Shown: positions 6,106 through 53,800 of the stretch, one piece after another
Layout of the letters: each line of letters starts with the position of its first letter
How positions within the stretch are numbered: position 1 is the first letter of the stretch
Source of the DNA: a virus
Lineage: Duplodnaviria; Caudoviricetes
Virus record (IMG/VR): IMGVR_UViG_2904399447_000014
Span: 1 to 64,000 of that record
Direction: 5' to 3' (one strand)
Length of the DNA: 64,000 nucleotides
The notes under the pieces: model-generated
Databases searched by the model: none
Told to the model about the DNA's origin: nothing
The model's input: the letters and a program-made list of their open reading frames with translations, nothing else
Made by a program: the position numbers and the translations under genes

Positions 6106-7209
6106 ATGAGCAAAAACAAACCAGTTTATGTGGCTTTAGACTGTGGCTCTGGCAATGTTGCTACCGTAATGGAGAATAAGGGCGAGGTTCAGATTCGTGT
6201 AACTCCATCGTTTGTAGCGAGAGTGCTGGGACAGGCGAAAGAAAGCGACTCGAAGACTAACTGGGTTACAACGGGTGCCAGCGGCGAACTGGAAACCTAT
6301 GCTGTGATGAATAAGGCTATCGGCGCCATTGATACCCGGACACCCGATTATCAACTGAGCGCGGCTTGTCGTGTGCTTGTAGTTAATGCTTTGGCACAGC
6401 TCAAACTTGGCGGCCGCAAAGTAGTAATCGCTGACACCTTGCCGGCAGACCAGTATTACGATGATAACAACGCCATAAACCGCCAGCAGATCGAGCTGAA
6501 GAGAAATTCCTTGATGACCGCGGTAACCAACGCCACCAGCGAAATTGCTTCACCTGATATCGTGTGTGTTGAAATTATGCCGGAAGCCGTGACCGCATAT
6601 AATGCAGCCCTATACACTCAGGATGGGCAAGATAACCCGTTCCTGATAGGTGCCAAGGATGTAGCCATTATCGATATTGGCCGCTATACCTGCGATGTCG
6701 CACACTTGGACTGTGACAACCATACCCTGTTCTCCCGTGGCACAACCCCTCGCGGTGTTCATATCATGCTGGAAGCGGTCAAAATGCAGATGATTGACCA
6801 GGCAGAAACGATCGGTATCCCTGTGGAGAAAGTTCGCGTGATGACGCTCGATGACATCGACTCCATTGTCCGCAAGGGCTACTACGGTTCGAGCATTGAA
6901 GCCTTGAAGGATAAACGTGTGTATCTTGACCATATCATCTCGGCTGCGGCAGCTAGCTTCGCAAGTGAAATCAACTATGCTCTCAAAACGATTGTTAAGT
7001 CACTTGGCAGCATCGACGCACTGATTATTGTTGGTGGCGGCGCCTACTATATTGGTGGCTTGCTTCGAGAAATGCCTAACTTTGTTGCGGATTGGCATGA
7101 TAACGTTGTGATACCCCACCAGCCAGAAACTGCGGTTGCACGAGGCGCCTACCTTGCCCTGCTGGCCCGGCATGATGTGGAAGAACAAACAACTGAAATT
7201 GAGGCTTAA
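6106..7209 (+). CDS. parM: ParM/StbA-family actin-like ATPase
   Basis: Phosphate-1 ALDCGSGNV, phosphate-2 IIDIGRYTCDV and adenosine IIVGGGA motifs; ATG at 6106 after AAGG. Confidence 0.9.
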   Translation: MSKNKPVYVALDCGSGNVATVMENKGEVQIRVTPSFVARVLGQAKESDSKTNWVTTGASGELETYAVMNKAIGAIDTRTPDYQLSAACRVLVVNALAQLKLGGRKVVIADTLPADQYYDDNNAINRQQIELKRNSLMTAVTNATSEIASPDIVCVEIMPEAVTAYNAALYTQDGQDNPFLIGAKDVAIIDIGRYTCDVAHLDCDNHTLFSRGTTPRGVHIMLEAVKMQMIDQAETIGIPVEKVRVMTLDDIDSIVRKGYYGSSIEALKDKRVYLDHIISAAAASFASEINYALKTIVKSLGSIDALIIVGGGAYYIGGLLREMPNFVADWHDNVVIPHQPETAVARGAYLALLARHDVEEQTTEIEA

Positions 7210-17959: not shown

Positions 17960-18008
17960 TTATGAATTAGCAAGTATTATTTATGAAGTATGAGTTATTA
18001 CTTATTAA
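17960..18008. repeat. Heptad array A (7 x 7 bp, consensus KTATGAN)
   Basis: TTATGAA-TTAGCAA-GTATTAT-TTATGAA-GTATGAG-TTATTAC-TTATTAA at the 3' end of the RHH gene. Confidence 0.75.
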
Positions 18009-18321
18009 GTTCGGCCAGGTATTTCTCTACTGCTTCTCGCATAATCGCACTGACACTTTTAGGGTTCTTCCCTGCTCGCTTATTGCTAAGTGCCAAATCT
18101 TCAATTTTGCGCTGTAGGGCCATTGGCAACGAAATAGCGGTGCGCGTCATCTGTTCAGCTGGTGCTGGGGCCACCGCTGGTGCCACTGACGCCTCTGGCT
18201 CAGCTTCGTGCTGCCCGTATGGTCGGTCTGACAGACGCTTAGCGAGGGCTTCAACCTCGGCTTCACTTGGTGCGGGGCGGCGATCTACCTGCACACGTTC
18301 GCTTGGTTTTTTAACAGCCAT
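17998..18321 (-). CDS. ParG/omega-like ribbon-helix-helix partition protein
   Basis: Flexible N-tail plus MTRTAISLPMALQRKIEDLA..SVSAIMREAVEKYL RHH; coupled to parA. Confidence 0.85.
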   Translation of the reverse strand: MAVKKPSERVQVDRRPAPSEAEVEALAKRLSDRPYGQHEAEPEASVAPAVAPAPAEQMTRTAISLPMALQRKIEDLALSNKRAGKNPKSVSAIMREAVEKYLAELNK

Positions 18322-18967: not shown

Positions 18968-19030
18968 ATATAACTTAATAATTTATACGTATGAGTTAAC
19001 ACTTATGAATTCATACGTATGAAATATGAA
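18968..19030. repeat. Heptad array B in parA leader
   Basis: TATGA or TCATA at 18990, 19004, 19011, 19018, 19025 in exact 7-bp register. Confidence 0.85.
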
Positions 19031-19085: not shown

Positions 19086-19134
19086 GTCATAATTTATATT
19101 TATAACTTATGAAGTATGATTTCATATTTAATAA
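19086..19134. repeat. Heptad array C upstream of parA promoter
   Basis: GTCATAA-TTTATAT-TTATAAC-TTATGAA-GTATGAT-TTCATAT-TTAATAA. Confidence 0.8.
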
Positions 19135-28545: not shown

Positions 28546-30204
28546 GTGAAGAAGCCTTCGAAGATGAACCCCGTAAACCTACTGCGCCGTATGATGGGGG
28601 GTTATGATGCCGGGGATAGCATCTCCAATGTAATCGCCAGCGGCGGCGGCCGAAATATCGTTTCTCGAACACTTCTGCCGACTGTTATCGATGATCGAGA
28701 AACGGGCCTTTCTACGGCAGGAGATACTGTCGTCGCTGGTTCAGTTCTCCCCAGCGATCGCTTATCCCGCTATACCATTTTTGACCAAATGGCTCGCTCA
28801 CCAACCCTATCTGCGGCACTTAACATTCATGTGTCCCATGCGCTGGCGCAGGATAAAAAAAGTGGGATGTGTTTCAACCTGGCGCCCATTGAAGCGACCG
28901 ATAAGGAAACAGCCGGGCGTTGTAACGAGATCATGAACGACCTGGGAGATATGCTGAACTCAGGCCTTCCATCATGGGCGCTGAATATGGCTATTTATGG
29001 CGTAAGCTACATTAGACCTTACGCTAAAGAGCGCAAAGGGATCACCAGCTTGGAATCCAGCTATTACACGCTGCCTCACTTCACAACAGAGTACGAGCGC
29101 GGTGGTGAGTTAGCCGGCTTCTCCGGGGATTACTTTGTTGACCCACTGACGAACCAACGGGTATTAGCAAAGCCGTGGGAATTGGTTGCAATGAAAGTGC
29201 CATACTGGACGCCGGACATTAACAACCGACCTATGAATACCGGTACGGTAGGATATTCATTGTTGAGTGACCCTTCGCAACGGCAGCTAATTGAGACTCA
29301 AAACTATGGCACCTCTTTCCTGGAATATAGCTATGAGTCTTTCGTCAACTTATGTGACGCATTGCGAGCGCTAAAAGCCACAAGGAACAACGCCGCAAAA
29401 ATAGACAGGCTGATAGCCTTATCGACAAACCAGCTTGATCCAGTCAATGCAGCAGCACATGCACGTAACGTTGGGCAATCACTGAAACGAAGCTCTGAAG
29501 AGATTATGCGCGCCTCTCGCAACAGCAATGTAATGCCGACAGTCTATAACCATATCGTTCCTGTTATGGGCGAGGGGAAAGGCGGCATAACAATCGACAC
29601 ACAGTTCATACCAGCCGATATTACTGGAATAGAAGACGTCATGTTCCACCTACGACAGTTGTGCTCTACTGTCGGTGTCGACGCCACTATGCTTGGATGG
29701 GCTGATCAAATGGCTGGTGGACTCGGTGATGGGGGCTGGCAGCAGACAGCTATACAGTCCGCGCAAAGGAGTTACTGGCTCAGGCAGGCAGCAGCCTCTT
29801 TCCTTTACCGAACATTCGACATTCATTGCGCCTACAAATATGGCAAGGTCTACCAGCACAATAATCGCCCCTTCCGTGTTGAATTCAACTCTGTGAACAC
29901 AGCGCTTCAGGCAGAAGCCAACCGCGAGCAAGAAAGCAGGGCGAACTACGTGTCGGTTGTCGTCAGTATTCTGGACGCAGTTCAAAACAACGCGCGCCTG
30001 GCTAGTTCGCCGGCGTTGATGAACCTGCTGTTCTCTGAAATGCTCCAGATGAACAATGACACTATCTCGAAAATCTACCAGGAACTATCTAGCACCAAGC
30101 AAGATGACTCAATGATGGAGAGTGCCGGCTGGGGCAACGTTGGTCTGGATGAGCTTTCTCGGGAAGATCTTTTAAGCATTTTTAAAAGCGCTATGGCGCC
30201 ATAG
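28546..30204 (+). CDS. prt: Portal protein
   Basis: Divergent from darB as in P1; T4 gp20-like size and P1 Prt-like blocks (IETQNYGTSFLEYSYE, GIEDVMFHLRQL). Confidence 0.9.
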   Translation: MKKPSKMNPVNLLRRMMGGYDAGDSISNVIASGGGRNIVSRTLLPTVIDDRETGLSTAGDTVVAGSVLPSDRLSRYTIFDQMARSPTLSAALNIHVSHALAQDKKSGMCFNLAPIEATDKETAGRCNEIMNDLGDMLNSGLPSWALNMAIYGVSYIRPYAKERKGITSLESSYYTLPHFTTEYERGGELAGFSGDYFVDPLTNQRVLAKPWELVAMKVPYWTPDINNRPMNTGTVGYSLLSDPSQRQLIETQNYGTSFLEYSYESFVNLCDALRALKATRNNAAKIDRLIALSTNQLDPVNAAAHARNVGQSLKRSSEEIMRASRNSNVMPTVYNHIVPVMGEGKGGITIDTQFIPADITGIEDVMFHLRQLCSTVGVDATMLGWADQMAGGLGDGGWQQTAIQSAQRSYWLRQAAASFLYRTFDIHCAYKYGKVYQHNNRPFRVEFNSVNTALQAEANREQESRANYVSVVVSILDAVQNNARLASSPALMNLLFSEMLQMNNDTISKIYQELSSTKQDDSMMESAGWGNVGLDELSREDLLSIFKSAMAP

Positions 30205-30249
30205 TCCAATACTGAGGGCCATAAACGGCCCTTACTCAAAATTTTGGCA

Positions 30250-30275
30250 TAAAAAAACCCGCCGTAGCGGGTTTT
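30250..30275. terminator. Bidirectional terminator
   Basis: AAAAAAACCCGC-CGTA-GCGGGTTTT between convergent genes. Confidence 0.7.
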
Positions 30276-30289
30276 AAGGAAAAACAAAA

Positions 30290-30400
30290 TTAGCCTTCAA
30301 CGGAAACGGTGCGTGTCCGCACGGTACCAGAACGCGTTGCCTGAACGAAGGACGCCTTGAGCTGGCGCATAGCTTCAAGCTTGCGTTCTGCCGCTGTCAT
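30290..30400 (-). CDS. 36-aa basic peptide (not in ORF track)
   Basis: MTAAERKLEAMRQLKASFVQATRSGTVRTRTVSVEG; starts 11 bp after the 168-aa gene and ends before the terminator; weak RBS. Confidence 0.5.
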   Translation of the reverse strand: MTAAERKLEAMRQLKASFVQATRSGTVRTRTVSVEG

Positions 30401-30410
30401 TTGTTTCAGA

Positions 30411-30917
30411 TTAGTAATATCGCGTTTTGAATGCATAACCTTTTCCTTCTTCACCTAGATCGGTGGTTACGTCAGATAATACTTCATCAAAAGTCTTTTG
30501 TAAAATTCGGTCGTAAAATCGTTTTAACTTATCGGTTTCAGCAATAGCAAAGTAGGCCTTAGCGCGGTACACACTGCAATGTAAAGTGATGATCGTTTCC
30601 AAAGCGCCTGCCAATTCGTTCAGATACGCCCGCCCCCCGCCACAATTGCCTTTTGCCGGCGGAGCATAAAAATCGCCACTTTCAAAGTTTTCAATGCGAT
30701 CAAACTTTACATCATAGCTATCAACTGGCACCTGGAAACCGACTTCCTCGCACCGATATGCATGGTATTCCGCATCTGTGATATCTACAGGTGCAAAAAT
30801 TATTAAGAAGTCATGATTTTTAACCGAAAAATCATACCTATGACAGAGGAATTCGCCGTGCGGGAACTCAATAAACTTTTCCAAATGATAGACAGGCATT
30901 TTTATAGTTTTGGTCAT
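30411..30917 (-). CDS. 168-aa hypothetical protein
   Basis: Own sigma70-like promoter under heptad array D; no family recognised. Confidence 0.75.
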   Translation of the reverse strand: MTKTIKMPVYHLEKFIEFPHGEFLCHRYDFSVKNHDFLIIFAPVDITDAEYHAYRCEEVGFQVPVDSYDVKFDRIENFESGDFYAPPAKGNCGGGRAYLNELAGALETIITLHCSVYRAKAYFAIAETDKLKRFYDRILQKTFDEVLSDVTTDLGEEGKGYAFKTRYY

Positions 30918-30972
30918 TGTCGATACGACATCTTAACTCAATACGCGTAACAAAACCTACAAATGAGCCTAC

Positions 30973-31021
30973 TTCATAACGCATAAGTATGAATTATGAT
31001 TTCATACTTGCGCAACATCAA
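30973..31021 (-). promoter_or_regulatory. Heptad array D (30973-31007) overlapping a sigma70-like promoter TTGATG-N17-CATAAT
   Basis: TTCATAA-CGCATAA-GTATGAA-TTATGAT-TTCATAC in 7-bp register; -35 at 31016-31021, -10 at 30993-30998. Confidence 0.75.
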
Positions 31022-31043: not shown

Positions 31044-31463
31044 TTAAGGGCGACACAAGAGCAAAACAGGATCATCACTCTCAACACCGTTCGCTATGGC
31101 CATTTCCCGGTAACTATCAAACAGCTCAACCCCGCCATCCTCAACTTCTGGAATCTCACCCCGGATATAACCCAAACGCACAGCCAAATTGTGGTCAGCC
31201 CCGCGCAGAAGGAATCCCGCACACTTAGCACTATTTTCCACCCCGCTATCGTGACAAGCAAACACGCTGGTCGCCTGGTCATAGCTTGTTCTGGCTGAGT
31301 GGCGAAATGCCTGTGCCGGAAACTCGCCTACTGCATCCTTTCGCCACGGGCACTTAGGACACGGTTTACGCCGGCAAGATTTCCCGCCCCCTTTGACCGT
31401 CACTACTTGATGCTCATCGCCGGCAGCTCGAGTTTCAATAATTTCTGGTTTGTTCGGTATCAT
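31044..31463 (-). CDS. DUF6283-like Cys-rich putative zinc-binding protein
   Basis: PCPKCPWR..FACH..CAGF..HNL motif. Confidence 0.75.
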   Translation of the reverse strand: MIPNKPEIIETRAAGDEHQVVTVKGGGKSCRRKPCPKCPWRKDAVGEFPAQAFRHSARTSYDQATSVFACHDSGVENSAKCAGFLLRGADHNLAVRLGYIRGEIPEVEDGGVELFDSYREMAIANGVESDDPVLLLCRP

Positions 31464-31605: not shown

Positions 31606-32628
31606 ATGCCCACACAAGCACTACGAACTGTTACTGACCGATTTTCCCTTGTCGATAACATTCGCAAACATACCGCACACAATGGTCGCAACTACCTAAT
31701 GAGTGCAATCCGCGCAACCATTAGCTCACCTGAAGTGCAAGAACGTATCAACTTAGGCGAAATGTATGGGTATTACAGCCATACTAATCGGGCCTTATAT
31801 CATAAGGAAACTGGCAATCTCGACCTGCCGGAAGTCTGTTATGTCACCATCGACGGCAAACCCGTCATGTTGAAGAACGTGCCCTCAAACAGAACATTAG
31901 CGATCAGTATTGATGATGAGGGTATCGTAGAACATACCCAGGAAATTTTAGACACAGAGCCAGGTCATATTGTTAACGGCATGGAACGGTCAATGGCAGG
32001 TGGCTGGAGCTGGGCGACTGGTGGCAGCGACACAGCAATTTCACGCGTAACTAGTTTCCACGGTTTTGACTATGTAACTACACCGAACTACATCAGTCTT
32101 AATCGAAAAGCAGCAATGCTGGAGGGCGTGTCCGATATGCACACCTGGCGCCTGGAAGAGCTAATCAAGTCTGGTTACACAGAACAAGGCGCCTCCGATA
32201 TCCTGAAGCATTTTGACCAGATGCAGTCCCACGAAATGATGTTCGAATCAGCACAAAGAAACGTTCACCTACAAAGCGACCTTCTTATCATGCAAGGTCA
32301 GATGATGGAGTTAGAGGATAAAATTCGACAAAGTGGTACGGCATTGGATGAAGCGAATCGCGAACGGAACCGCCGCGACGCCATGTTAGAAACGGCAATC
32401 AGAACCTTGCCGATTTTCCTAAGCGAAGAACAGAAAAAGGCTCTATTACGCTTAGATTCCGATGACGACCTTAAAACTGTAAATGCTATGTTCGAGTCCA
32501 TCGCAGCCGGAAACCTTAATTCTCTACCTATTGGTAGCAATACTCCCAGAGAAGCGGCGCCGGCCTCCAAGTCTAAAATTGGCGAAGTGCCACCAATTCT
32601 GCCCAATGGTTTTAAATCCTTCCTGTAA
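31606..32628 (+). CDS. pro: Prohead protease
   Basis: TVTDRF, GYYSH, HTQEILDTEPG, GGWSWATGG, GFDYVTTPNYISL match P1 Pro. Confidence 0.93.
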   Translation: MPTQALRTVTDRFSLVDNIRKHTAHNGRNYLMSAIRATISSPEVQERINLGEMYGYYSHTNRALYHKETGNLDLPEVCYVTIDGKPVMLKNVPSNRTLAISIDDEGIVEHTQEILDTEPGHIVNGMERSMAGGWSWATGGSDTAISRVTSFHGFDYVTTPNYISLNRKAAMLEGVSDMHTWRLEELIKSGYTEQGASDILKHFDQMQSHEMMFESAQRNVHLQSDLLIMQGQMMELEDKIRQSGTALDEANRERNRRDAMLETAIRTLPIFLSEEQKKALLRLDSDDDLKTVNAMFESIAAGNLNSLPIGSNTPREAAPASKSKIGEVPPILPNGFKSFL

Positions 32629-50819: not shown

Positions 50820-50849
50820 TTGAATACCTATGCTGGGAGCAAGGAGGAT

Positions 50850-50868
50850 AATTTAGGCGAAGTGAGTT
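50850..50868 (-). promoter_or_regulatory. Late promoter for pmgA-bplA-16
   Basis: AACTCACTT-CGCC-TAAATT directly after an 11-bp-stem hairpin (50870-50897) ending sit. Confidence 0.8.
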
Positions 50869-50899
50869 AATGAGTGCGGCAGGGATGCCGCACTCATCG

Positions 50900-53800
50900 T
50901 TAGCCGAAGAGTTTTTCGAGGGCGCGATCTGATATCGCAGTTGGCACCTCAGTTCGCGGCGCAGGTTGCGGGCTGTGAGTAGTCATGTTGATATTTGCGT
51001 CTTTTGGCTCAGGCTTCACATTGAGTTGTTTCTCAACGGCTTTGGCAATACGTTCAAGCCAAGACAGAGTTTCATCATCGCTGCTGCGGGATTCATTATC
51101 TCTTTGATAGACTGGCGCCACGCCGCTGGCCGCCAGGTTTGGGATCGGTGGCGGCGGAGACGTTTGAAATGCCGAAACAGCCTGTTGAGTAAGGCTGTTG
51201 GATTTTCCTCCGATAGCGTTAGCAACTGTATCGCTCAGGAATGAAAACGGCGTATCGGCCATCAGGCCAGATATGACTGATGAAACACCTCCGCCAACAG
51301 TATCACCGGCCGTCACTGCGAATGAGGATAGTGGGTTATCAATATCAACCCCAATCGACTGGAGGGCACTACGTGCAGCATCTTCCATCACCCCTTTCCC
51401 CGACTCCATAGCTACGCTGCCAATACCTGAAGCCATATCTTTTGTCTCATCCCACCAGCTGGTATCCCCATTAGCAGCGTTATCCTGCTGTGACGGACTC
51501 GAGCCAGGTAGAACTTTGCGGGCTTTTTTTACTTCGCTGGCGGGTACAATCTGCATCGGTTGCTCTTGAGCGCCATTAACGGGGGGAGGCATAATTGCGC
51601 CAGATTCAGCACCTTGTTCGACTCCACTCCCGATCCTGCTGGTGGCCCTCCGCTGGAGTGCGGCAATAGCATCCGGTGAATTTGATGCCTGTTGTAAGGC
51701 ACCCGGTAACTTGTCGTTTATCGGCACTGTTAGGCCACGATCTGGCGCGGGTACAGTCAGGCCTTCTACATCAAACATTCCAGTCAATGCAGCGTCGCTT
51801 TTACCTCCAAGTTCGCCCAAATACGTCGCGGCAGTGTCATATGCTTCGGTGGCTGCCTCGGTGACGCGCGCGCCCATAGATTGCTTTTCCGGACGAGAGA
51901 ATTGCGCGCTGCTGGAAATGGCTTCAAGGCCATCAGCCTGGCGCTGCTGATTAATGATTGACAGCGTTTCTGGGTTAAATTGACCAACCCACTTTTTACC
52001 GGAACGTTCGCCAATTGCTGTTTTTATAAATTGATCAGAAACCTGCGGCGCCCCACCTTCGATAGTAGCTATCTGCCGCATTACTTTTGTCATGACGTCC
52101 GCATTGCGCAGATCAAGCCGATCGCTCTCCCTCACGCCCAAGGACTTCGACAGCTGAGCAATATAGCCCTCGGTATCATTCTCGCCACTTGGGGCATATT
52201 TAGAGATAATCCCCCTTACGGTGTCTACTTTTTGATATCCAATTGCTTTTGATGTTCCTTCTGCATAACTGCTAAGCTGATTCGCTAGCGCACGAAATCC
52301 CTCTTCAGGAGAGTCAAATTTAGCAAAACGACGTTCACCTTTTGCATTGGCTTTCTCTAACTCAGCACCGGCTTGGCCCGCATACTCCAGGTTGCCAAAG
52401 TTGTTATTCCTAAACGCCCTGGTATGCGCATTAGCGCCACCTATATTTAATTCATTCGAAACATTATTAAACGCCGGAGCTGATCCATCAGTTGCAGATA
52501 TGCCAGATGCGAGTGATGGGTCGGCCATGCCAGGCATTACGGACTGAAGAGAACTATCCAGGTCTTTAATTGCTTCTGTAGTTTGTTTCGCACCTGCGCG
52601 TATTGCGTCGACCTGGCTATCGCTACCCGAGTCAAAAAACTCTTTTACACTGCTGACGCCATTGTCTAAGGACTGTGCAATATCACTGGTACTAAATGTT
52701 AGGCCATCCGCCACACCATCCATACCGAGCCAGCGAGCGCCGTCAGCCATGAAGCCGGCACCACCGGACACCAATCCACCCATGTCGATTATATTGGCGG
52801 CAGCATATTCGCTTTTATGACGGCCGGAAACATCCTGACCTTCAGCCAATTTAAACGCCCCTCTCTGTGCTTCACTATCACTGAAGCCATCGATCGCATC
52901 GATGCCGGCGCCTATAATCGTCCCTACAATTGGAATCGCCTTCAGAGCACCTTTTGCAGCCAGCTTGCCAGCGGCTTTTTCCGCAACCTTTTCACCTACA
53001 GCTTTTTCTGCTGCATGTTCTGCCGTAGTGACAGAAGCTTTCTCTACCCCCTTTTTACTCGCGTTCTTCCCAGTAGACGCCGTAATGGTTTCTGCGTTCG
53101 TTGCTGGTGGTTTAGCTGAAACTCTATTGCGAGCCATTTTCCGGCCGCGCTTAGACTTGGAGCGAGATTTACGCGATTTTTGCTGTGCTTTGACGTCCTC
53201 TGGTTGTTTTGGTACCTCAACGCCCTTCTTTCCTGCTGGATTTTCGATATTGGCGCCAACAGCCTCAGTAACTTCGCTACTACTGCCAAATACCCCCTTA
53301 ATAGCTCCATATGCACCAACAGCTACAGCTCCTGCACCAGCGGCCACTTTCGTCAGCCTGCCTCCTTTCCCCTTTGGCGATCCGGCGGATGGAATATGCT
53401 TCCCATGCATACCACCAGTAGTAACCGGCCCACGCCCAGGGCGCGGCATGATATCGTTGATATCACCTGCACCAGCCAAGCGTTTAAATAGTTTTACGAG
53501 TACCCCGCCGCCCAACGCTAACGATAGCCCCCCCAGAATTCGAGATCCCAAGGCCTTTCCGATAGCCTTCCCGCCCAGGCCCGCTAAAATCCCGCCAAGG
53601 ATACCGCGCCCACCTTTGCTACCCTTGGAGTCCTTGTCTCTGATTTCACCCAGAACGCGGATAATCTCTTCATCGGATTTTGCTAACTGTTCCTGCTGCG
53701 ATTCCATAACGGAGATCACTTTACCGGTGGTGCTCGCACTGTAGGCTTGTTGCGATTTAGTCGGTGCACTGACATCCGGGAATTTTATCGGCGCCTGGGT

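Follow-up and report, generated by a model that had tools for sequence, protein, structure and literature searches.

A five-unit array of the partition-locus type precedes a conserved two-gene cassette in a P1-like phage-plasmid of Serratia marcescens

An example of a partition protein that acts on contiguous heptad repeats comes from pSM19035. There, the copS, delta and omega promoters are overlapped by gap-free 7-bp repeats in mixed orientation, and ParA is activated only by arrays with at least four contiguous repeats (PMC9499535). The heptads of pSM19035 are found at the par promoters and also at the promoters of distant maintenance genes, including a toxin-antitoxin (TA) locus, and the omega promoter drives omega-epsilon-zeta (PMC9499535; PMC4627068). 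This article describes a five-unit heptad array, and the two-gene cassette that it precedes, in a stretch of 64,000 nucleotides of viral DNA (positions 1 to 64,000 of IMG/VR record IMGVR_UViG_2904399447_000014, hereafter the window) that forms a segment of a Serratia marcescens phage-plasmid of the P1-like kind. The existence of an omega-like regulon in this Gram-negative phage-plasmid is well supported. Like the regulon of omega (ParB-pSM) and delta, it associates a small Walker-type ParA and a small, probable ribbon-helix-helix (RHH) protein with contiguous arrays of at least four heptads. On the other hand, the omega regulon belongs to Firmicutes inc18 plasmids, and the protein encoded here differs from omega in matching RHH_1 only and in having 107 aa with a long N-terminal tail. 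Binding and repression are here predicted, and the putative targets are a cassette coding for a GNAT-like protein and a peptide, and a helix-turn-helix (HTH) gene located beside a ParE-family toxin gene, in place of the copS and epsilon-zeta of omega.

Two other systems invite comparison. KorB of the IncP-1 plasmid RK2 is an HTH ParB-CTPase sliding clamp that acts through 13-bp palindromes, frequently from afar and together with KorA, and its operators include those on the accessory kil genes (kil-kor). KorB resembles the present case more loosely than omega does, as a partition protein that serves as plasmid-wide repressor via dispersed operators (PMC11790492). Here, in contrast to KorB, a probable RHH protein would act on heptad arrays located at the target itself. 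N15 is likewise a phage-plasmid, in its case a linear one, with dispersed sites for its partition protein; these sites are said, in work of Ravin, Rech and Lane from 2008, to be scattered among phage genes and to influence their expression. N15 reportedly differs in its type Ia SopAB system, in its palindromic sites and in having phage late genes as targets, whereas the target here is an accessory cassette.

Read on the minus strand from 31007 to 30973, the array upstream of the cassette consists of the units GTATGAA, ATCATAA, TTCATAC, TTATGCG and TTATGAA, which follow each other in exact 7-bp register, in mixed orientation and without gaps (Table 1). Runs of at least four contiguous, ungapped 7-bp repeats, both direct and inverted, are the mark of omega-type sites, and they are found here with five units and at the par locus with 7, 8 and 5-6. 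Runs of five in-phase units were scored with a position weight matrix (PWM) trained on 12 clear heptads taken from the three par-locus arrays only. The array obtained a score of 45.6, the highest in the window, followed by the par arrays (43.6, 39.0 and 36.3) and by a next best site at 17.3, while the maxima reached in block-shuffled sequences had a mean of 13.8 and a highest value of 19.1. In the whole genome (27 contigs, 5.58 Mb), five sites scored above 20, all of them on contig C12; the array ranked first among all five-heptad arrays, and scans for two and three units (k=2 and k=3) recovered the same five sites. Its likeness in kind to the arrays of the par locus is far beyond chance. Judged by its sequence, it is very probably a genuine site of the RHH partition protein of the plasmid. 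A preliminary description of this DNA had pointed out both the five-unit array and its distance of about 12 kb from parA, and these observations stand. When the unit is read in the register WWTCATA, it differs from the WATCACW of omega at essentially one position (C to T), a likeness that may reflect convergence or coincidence.

The cassette is also found between pro and prt in two further P1-like Serratia phage-plasmid lineages, represented by pJSRIV002_3 (large protein 63% identical; RHH protein 59% identical by BLASTP and 54.5% by tblastn) and by the CC22-02 type (large protein 66% identical; RHH proteins of cluster P0082, which includes one on an 81,239-bp contig that presumably belongs to this type, 74% identical). 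In the three lineages, an array lies 74-85 bp upstream of the cassette start (77-85 bp in the two relatives), with scores of 46.7 for the window (45.6 in the scan described above), 30.9 for pJSRIV002_3 and 41.5 for the CC22-02 type. The motif of an outlying unit, ATGTATGAATA, is also kept in all three, and the rest of the spacer has diverged, with indels. Homologous cassettes located elsewhere, i.e., in Yersinia, Klebsiella, Pectobacterium, another Serratia plasmid, prophage-like regions and a Kluyvera chromosome, gave array scores of at most 17.3, which is the level of chance, in every setting read. Since, among the cassettes read, only those of the three P1-like phage-plasmid lineages have the array, it travels with the partition system and not with the cassette. 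Comparative evidence thus indicates that the array is functional and that it has been kept at a promoter-proximal position.

The par locus has the type Ib layout, in which the gene of a short Walker-type ParA is followed by that of a small centromere-binding protein; the 107-aa gene begins at the stop codon of parA (TAATG overlap), and the operon is flanked by three arrays whose 7-bp units read WTCATAM or its complement. The 107-aa protein itself scores against RHH_1 with an E value of 1.7e-3 and 18.7 bits, below the cutoff of 20.5, and RHH_1 is matched by all six members of its family, with a best E value of 1.2e-5. Scanning the six members against Pfam at E<=1 returned only RHH_1, RHH_3 and unrelated weak matches, so that by sequence the protein falls outside the omega and ParG families (Omega_Repress and ParG). 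The protein combines a disordered N-terminal half, which includes a conserved short helix, with a C-terminal strand-helix-helix, and its AlphaFold2 model has an extended segment and two helices at residues 58-106. Structure searches with the monomer model (Foldseek and a wide VIA search) retrieved generic helical hairpins only, a result that is uninformative for an obligate intertwined dimer, and a sequence search of the PDB with the protein gave no match. The conserved helix of the N-terminal tail, AEVEALAxRLxDxPYG (window 18226-18264, residues 20-32), may be the segment that contacts ParA, by analogy with the N-terminal peptides of omega and ParG.

A ParE-family toxin gene (PF05016, 5.2e-11) and, following it, an HTH_3 gene (3.1e-13) enclose the fifth site of the genome, which lies outside the window; the array ends 27 bp from the start of the HTH_3 gene. 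Its place beside a ParE-family toxin/HTH pair strengthens the analogy with omega, which the preliminary description had already proposed in the form of omega-like co-regulation. In pJSRIV002_3, the par locus also has heptad arrays, and another array occupies the map position of the fifth site, after dam and before a gene annotated as coding for a DNA-binding protein; the flanking genes are there unrelated to those of the window plasmid (BLASTP E value of 0.25 for one, no alignment for the other).

The cassette downstream of the array had been read as an operon of two genes, of 168 and 36 aa, closed by a terminator. The 168-aa open reading frame (ORF) is real, and nearly all of its homologues begin with MPVY or MPxY, so that a start at ATG 30899 (162 aa) is likelier. 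The small gene turned out to be longer than first thought, with 48 aa from ATG 30436: this start has a good Shine-Dalgarno sequence (AGGA-N7-ATG), situated inside the large ORF, it is the one annotated by PGAP in a 99.9% identical plasmid, and the N-terminal MHSKxDI segment, upstream of the ATG of the 36-aa version, is conserved in relatives. The terminator holds, with a 9-bp G+C stem (30254-30275) and a U7 tract, a folding energy of -17 kcal/mol and a z score of -3.7, and none of 200 shuffles matched its fold energy. Co-occurrence of the homologues as a pair and conservation of the small ORF, which the preliminary description had named as checks, were both found. In all loci that were read through, the small ORF is found next to the large gene, even where the large proteins share only about 26-30% identity, and it is kept in three loci with a fusion of the large gene to a SIR2 domain and in one with a disrupted large gene. 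In most lineages the two genes share 23-32 nt, and in a few they are simply adjacent; the peptide has 47-49 aa in close relatives and about 30-90 aa across the wider family, and the ratio of nonsynonymous to synonymous substitution rates (dN/dS) of the small ORF outside the overlap is 0.10-0.36 in computable pairs, with one exception at 0.63. On the strength of this conservation, the small ORF is a real gene and a real partner of the large gene. Small co-directional, adjacent genes that co-occur across unrelated contexts form the generic layout of type II TA systems, and this layout is present here. In the locus with the broken large gene (L028, G357:C1:1925341-1928616), the large gene is in three fragments and the ORF of a 30-aa peptide downstream is intact; this order of decay, seen in a single case, is the one to be expected of a pair in which the large protein does the harm.

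The small family of the large protein counts 32 clusters when grouped at 90% identity and is represented by 43 sequences at the 50% level; its named members are all "hypothetical." Its AlphaFold2 model (pLDDT 77.5, pTM 0.77) retrieved with Foldseek only GNAT-superfamily acyltransferases among the matches listed (best E value 9e-4, TM 0.29-0.50), and nearly all of the 50 best rows obtained with VIA were GNAT-type or GNAT-like (Z 6.3-8.2). The Z scores are modest; the consistency across matches makes a divergent GNAT-like fold convincing at the level of the modelled fold, and the structure search suggested by the preliminary description thus gave a fold class. A strand VKFDRxENF, His113, Tyr122 and Tyr135 are invariant or nearly so in the family, Tyr135 being invariant, and this Tyr would sit at the position of the catalytic (general-acid) Tyr of helix alpha4 in GNATs. 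Among ESM-Atlas look-alikes were unnamed clusters and the structural neighbours DUF6934 and DUF6169 (TM 0.65-0.68), both of which are families with no assigned function. No match came from a PDB search with a sequence profile of 34 members, and none from a look-up of the literature by protein accession. Three lineages have the domain placed behind a CobB-like SIR2 domain (PF02146 at 28 bits, above cutoff; NF001753 4.2e-13); in the fusion that was read by eye (P0072), the motifs GAGxS, TxNxD and LHG look intact. One SIR2-fusion locus is carried by a small plasmid of the Rep3 type and has a HigB-like/HTH pair as neighbour.

The described TA systems made of a GNAT toxin and an RHH antitoxin (TacAT, AtaRT, KacAT and ItaRT) resemble the cassette in joining a small GNAT-fold protein and a small partner in an overlapping, mobile gene pair, and probably in the invariant Tyr at the general-acid position. 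Unlike them, the cassette has no match to the Acetyltransf family in per-member Pfam scans of 34 diverse members of the large-protein family, its acetyl-CoA loop is not conserved, and its 48-aa partner is encoded downstream and matches neither RHH nor DUF1778. These sequence characters place the cassette outside the GNAT/RHH family of TA systems.

The distribution of the cassette is patchy, with 9 of 401 Enterobacterales species genomes positive, and a phage collection contained no near match to the cassette locus. In Kluyvera it stands alone on the chromosome, as an insert of just the two genes between cstA and the enterobactin (ent) genes. A Klebsiella plasmid carries it between a TIR-type PDC-S35 candidate and PifA (2.7e-284), Yersinia and Serratia plasmids near kfrA, par or RelB/ParE genes, and Pectobacterium inside a tra region; some copies adjoin genes that, from reading by eye without family search, are presumably antirepressors of the Bro/Ant type. 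The cassette is a horizontally mobile two-gene module. The pattern of its contexts is typical of selfish or conflict modules and does not separate TA, defence and anti-defence functions.

The most likely reading of the region, which is given even chances when all of its parts are taken jointly, is that of a self-contained accessory cassette, on the strand opposite to the late genes prt and pro, that is controlled by the RHH protein and codes for an effector and its neutraliser. Taken separately, regulation of the cassette by the array is somewhat favoured, and a TA-like or defence function is plausible, as a tentative proposal that falls a little short of an even prospect. RHH dimers would bind the array cooperatively, as omega does on pSM19035, and bound RHH would throttle transcription that starts in the array or passes through it. 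Expression of the cassette would be high while RHH is scarce, as when the element has newly entered a naive cell or when its copy number is low, and it would be low once steady state is reached; control of the HTH gene beside the ParE-family toxin gene would follow the same logic; the array might possibly act as an auxiliary centromere as well. As a best guess, the GNAT-like protein would be the enzyme or effector and the peptide its bound, neutralising partner. Omega-type control is control of dosage and establishment, not a trigger. A system triggered when RHH repression is lost, as the preliminary description had envisaged, fails for post-segregational killing, and such a trigger is rejected because the template, i.e., the cassette genes, is lost together with the repressor.

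Several observations weigh against RHH control of an effector and its neutraliser. The RHH status of the partition protein is probable and comes from weak sequence matches. Array C of the par locus lies at the end of the operon, away from any promoter it could control, so that an array is not necessarily an operator and can be purely centromeric. A sigma-70 promoter, TTGATG-N17-CATAAT, had been proposed to drive the two genes; its sequence is indeed present (TTGATG at 31021-31016, CATAAT at 30998-30993) with its -10 hexamer in the array, and it is not conserved in relatives. The number of promoter-like sites found (5) compares with 3.0+/-1.6 in shuffles, and the predicted -35 hexamer falls within a stretch of about 20 bp that is missing from both pJSRIV002_3 and the CC22-02 type. 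A scan of the plus strand at the equivalent place in pJSRIV002_3 gave no promoter. The promoter is not accepted as an established feature, because its -35 hexamer is in a lineage-specific stretch and nothing equivalent occurs in pJSRIV002_3; it is no more than a 9/12 consensus match, and read-through from the upstream DUF6283 gene is possible. The gene order is the reverse of that of known GNAT/RHH TA pairs. The small peptide has no recognisable DNA-binding domain and no RHH, DUF1778 or other Pfam match, and the acetyl-CoA loop of GNATs (Q/RxxGxG/A, before helix alpha3) is not conserved in the large protein. Neither cassette protein had a usable match in Pfam (also when the members of both family alignments were scanned one by one), NCBIfam or PHROGs, nor any match in PADLOC (PADLOC-DB 2.0) at E<=1. 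Finally, a defence-island context is clear in one lineage only, that of the Klebsiella plasmid.

Among the alternatives, the array could mainly be an auxiliary centromere, i.e., a dispersed parS for ParA and RHH, whose position before the cassette would have little regulatory meaning. Arrays of at least four contiguous heptads are centromeres in pSM19035 (PMC9499535), and array C without promoter to control would be of the same kind, as would a large cluster of heptads between tail-region genes of pJSRIV002_3 (NZ_CP074146.1, 51626-51750; L014 ~6726-6850). This cluster counts more than 12 heptads and sits between a 1,318-aa ORF and a 115-aa ORF, and the window has no counterpart of it at the equivalent junction (~50820-50900). 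The Sop centromere sites of N15 are reportedly dispersed too. However, both dispersed arrays of the present element lie 27-85 bp upstream of co-directional accessory genes, at a position kept in three lineages, and operator and centromere roles coincide in pSM19035, so that a centromeric role is compatible with regulation; that the array is mainly a centromere is held unlikely.

The same operator logic would give zygotic-type induction, and a burst of expression on entry into an RHH-free cell could serve establishment, the GNAT-like enzyme modifying a host defence protein or nucleic acid. GNAT-fold enzymes are known in anti-defence (AcrVA5), and the structural matches of the large protein include Mom of phage Mu (Z 6.5), a GNAT-like enzyme that modifies DNA; phage-plasmids, conjugative plasmids and prophage accessory regions, where the neighbours are presumably the Bro/Ant-type antirepressors mentioned above, are suitable carriers. 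However, the lone chromosomal copy of Kluyvera between core genes and the copy in a defence island fit a host-side or addiction role better, and the conserved peptide is left unexplained; an establishment or anti-defence function is rather improbable. Equally hard to favour is a housekeeping-type module for acyl transfer or acetylation, made of an enzyme and a small regulatory subunit and carried as neutral or niche cargo with no role in addiction or defence. It would fit the GNAT-like fold of the large protein, and the fusion to a CobB-like NAD-dependent deacylase in three lineages, with motifs intact in the one fusion read, suggests acyl-lysine chemistry; but the cassette has a very scattered occurrence that is tied to mobile elements, a tight layout of two genes is what selfish or conflict modules typically show, and SIR2 domains are common defence effectors. 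A precursor of a ribosomally synthesised and post-translationally modified peptide with its modifying enzyme was rejected, because the peptide is basic and apparently helical, with no Cys/Ser/Thr-rich core according to a reading of its sequence, and because no transporter or protease gene was seen to travel with the pair.

Under RHH control of an effector and its neutraliser, the broadest proposal would be that the GNAT-like protein and its peptide, fused to SIR2 in some cases, constitute a new TA-like or abortive-infection family wired, together with the ParE-family toxin/HTH pair, into an omega-like RHH regulon; as a whole it is doubtful. If true, no heptad regulon of this sort would have been described in Enterobacterales before. 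If RHH binds the arrays, an omega-style circuit would operate outside Firmicutes, in a phage-plasmid, and would coordinate segregation with accessory and addiction genes; the design would then have arisen or spread more widely than thought, and the way in which phage-plasmids adjust the dosage of cargo genes could be tested on it. The cassette itself is a compact, mobile and annotation-free family with a partner peptide and SIR2-fused variants, and a reasonable candidate for a new conflict module, be it of the TA, defence or anti-defence kind.

Table 1. Location of the arrays, genes and signals discussed in the text (positions in the window unless another sequence is named).
Feature	Position	Strand	Description
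Heptad array	30973-31007	-	Five contiguous 7-bp repeats, consensus WTCATAM and complement; orientation <- -> -> <- <-
Outlying unit GTATGAA	31029-31035	-	In phase with main array, far side of predicted -35
Predicted sigma-70 promoter TTGATG-N17-CATAAT	30993-31021	-	9/12 consensus matches; -10 inside array
Large gene	30411-30917	-	Longest ORF 168 aa; likely start ATG 30899 (162 aa)
Small gene	30290-30436	-	48 aa, basic; 26-nt overlap with large gene 3' end
Intrinsic terminator	30247-30275	-	9-bp stem, 4-nt loop, U7
ParA, type Ib partition ATPase, 211 aa	18321-18956	-	NF041546 ParA_partition 7.9e-35; phrog_164 2.2e-34
Probable RHH centromere-binding protein and repressor, 107 aa	17998-18321	-	RHH_1 matches
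Par array A, ~7 heptads	19086-19134	-	Abuts -35 of par promoter TTTACA-N17-AATAAT (promoter read by eye)
Par array B, ~8 heptads	18975-19030	-	Between par promoter and parA start
Par array C, 5-6 heptads	17960-18001	-	RHH stop codon, before operon terminator; no promoter to control
Fifth array	C12:87830-87878 (L003:3331-3379), outside window		Score 39.1
Genes flanking fifth array	L003:3417-3677, L003:2936-3304	-	ParE-family toxin gene, HTH_3 gene
DUF6283 gene	31044-31463	-	Upstream of array, co-directional; Cys-rich; 2.7e-39
Portal gene prt	28546-30204	+	Late gene
Head-processing gene pro	31606-32628	+	Late gene
SIR2-fusion loci, 343-aa proteins	P0072 / L019:442-1473; L022:934-1965; L023	minus (L023)	Peptide gene still follows each

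The cassette locus is 99.9% identical to the 84-kb plasmid NZ_OW849140.1, whose PGAP products include a DUF6283 protein, a 168-aa and a 48-aa hypothetical protein, the portal protein and a 2,264-aa SNF2-related (DarB-like) protein. A minus-strand insert of three genes, i.e., the DUF6283 gene, the 168-aa ORF and the small ORF ending at 30290, parts the portal gene from pro. No terminator was found between the DUF6283 gene and the array, so that read-through into the cassette could take place, and the DUF6283 gene may be co-transcribed with the cassette. Of the three phage-plasmid lineages, two (the window and the CC22-02 lineage) have this gene immediately before the array, while pJSRIV002_3 has other small genes in its place, and the gene is outside the conserved pair.

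Two direct copies of an element of about 820 bp, presumably IS26-like from a reading by eye of the transposase N-terminus, are found at C12:14797-15618 and C12:98878-99700, just outside the left end of the window. They are 84,081 bp apart, which is near the size of the related plasmid (84,132 bp), and the remaining ~20 kb of the 104.7-kb contig C12 carries a 965-aa ORF and other cargo. It seems that either the phage-plasmid gained a segment bounded by insertion sequences or the assembly threads through such a sequence.

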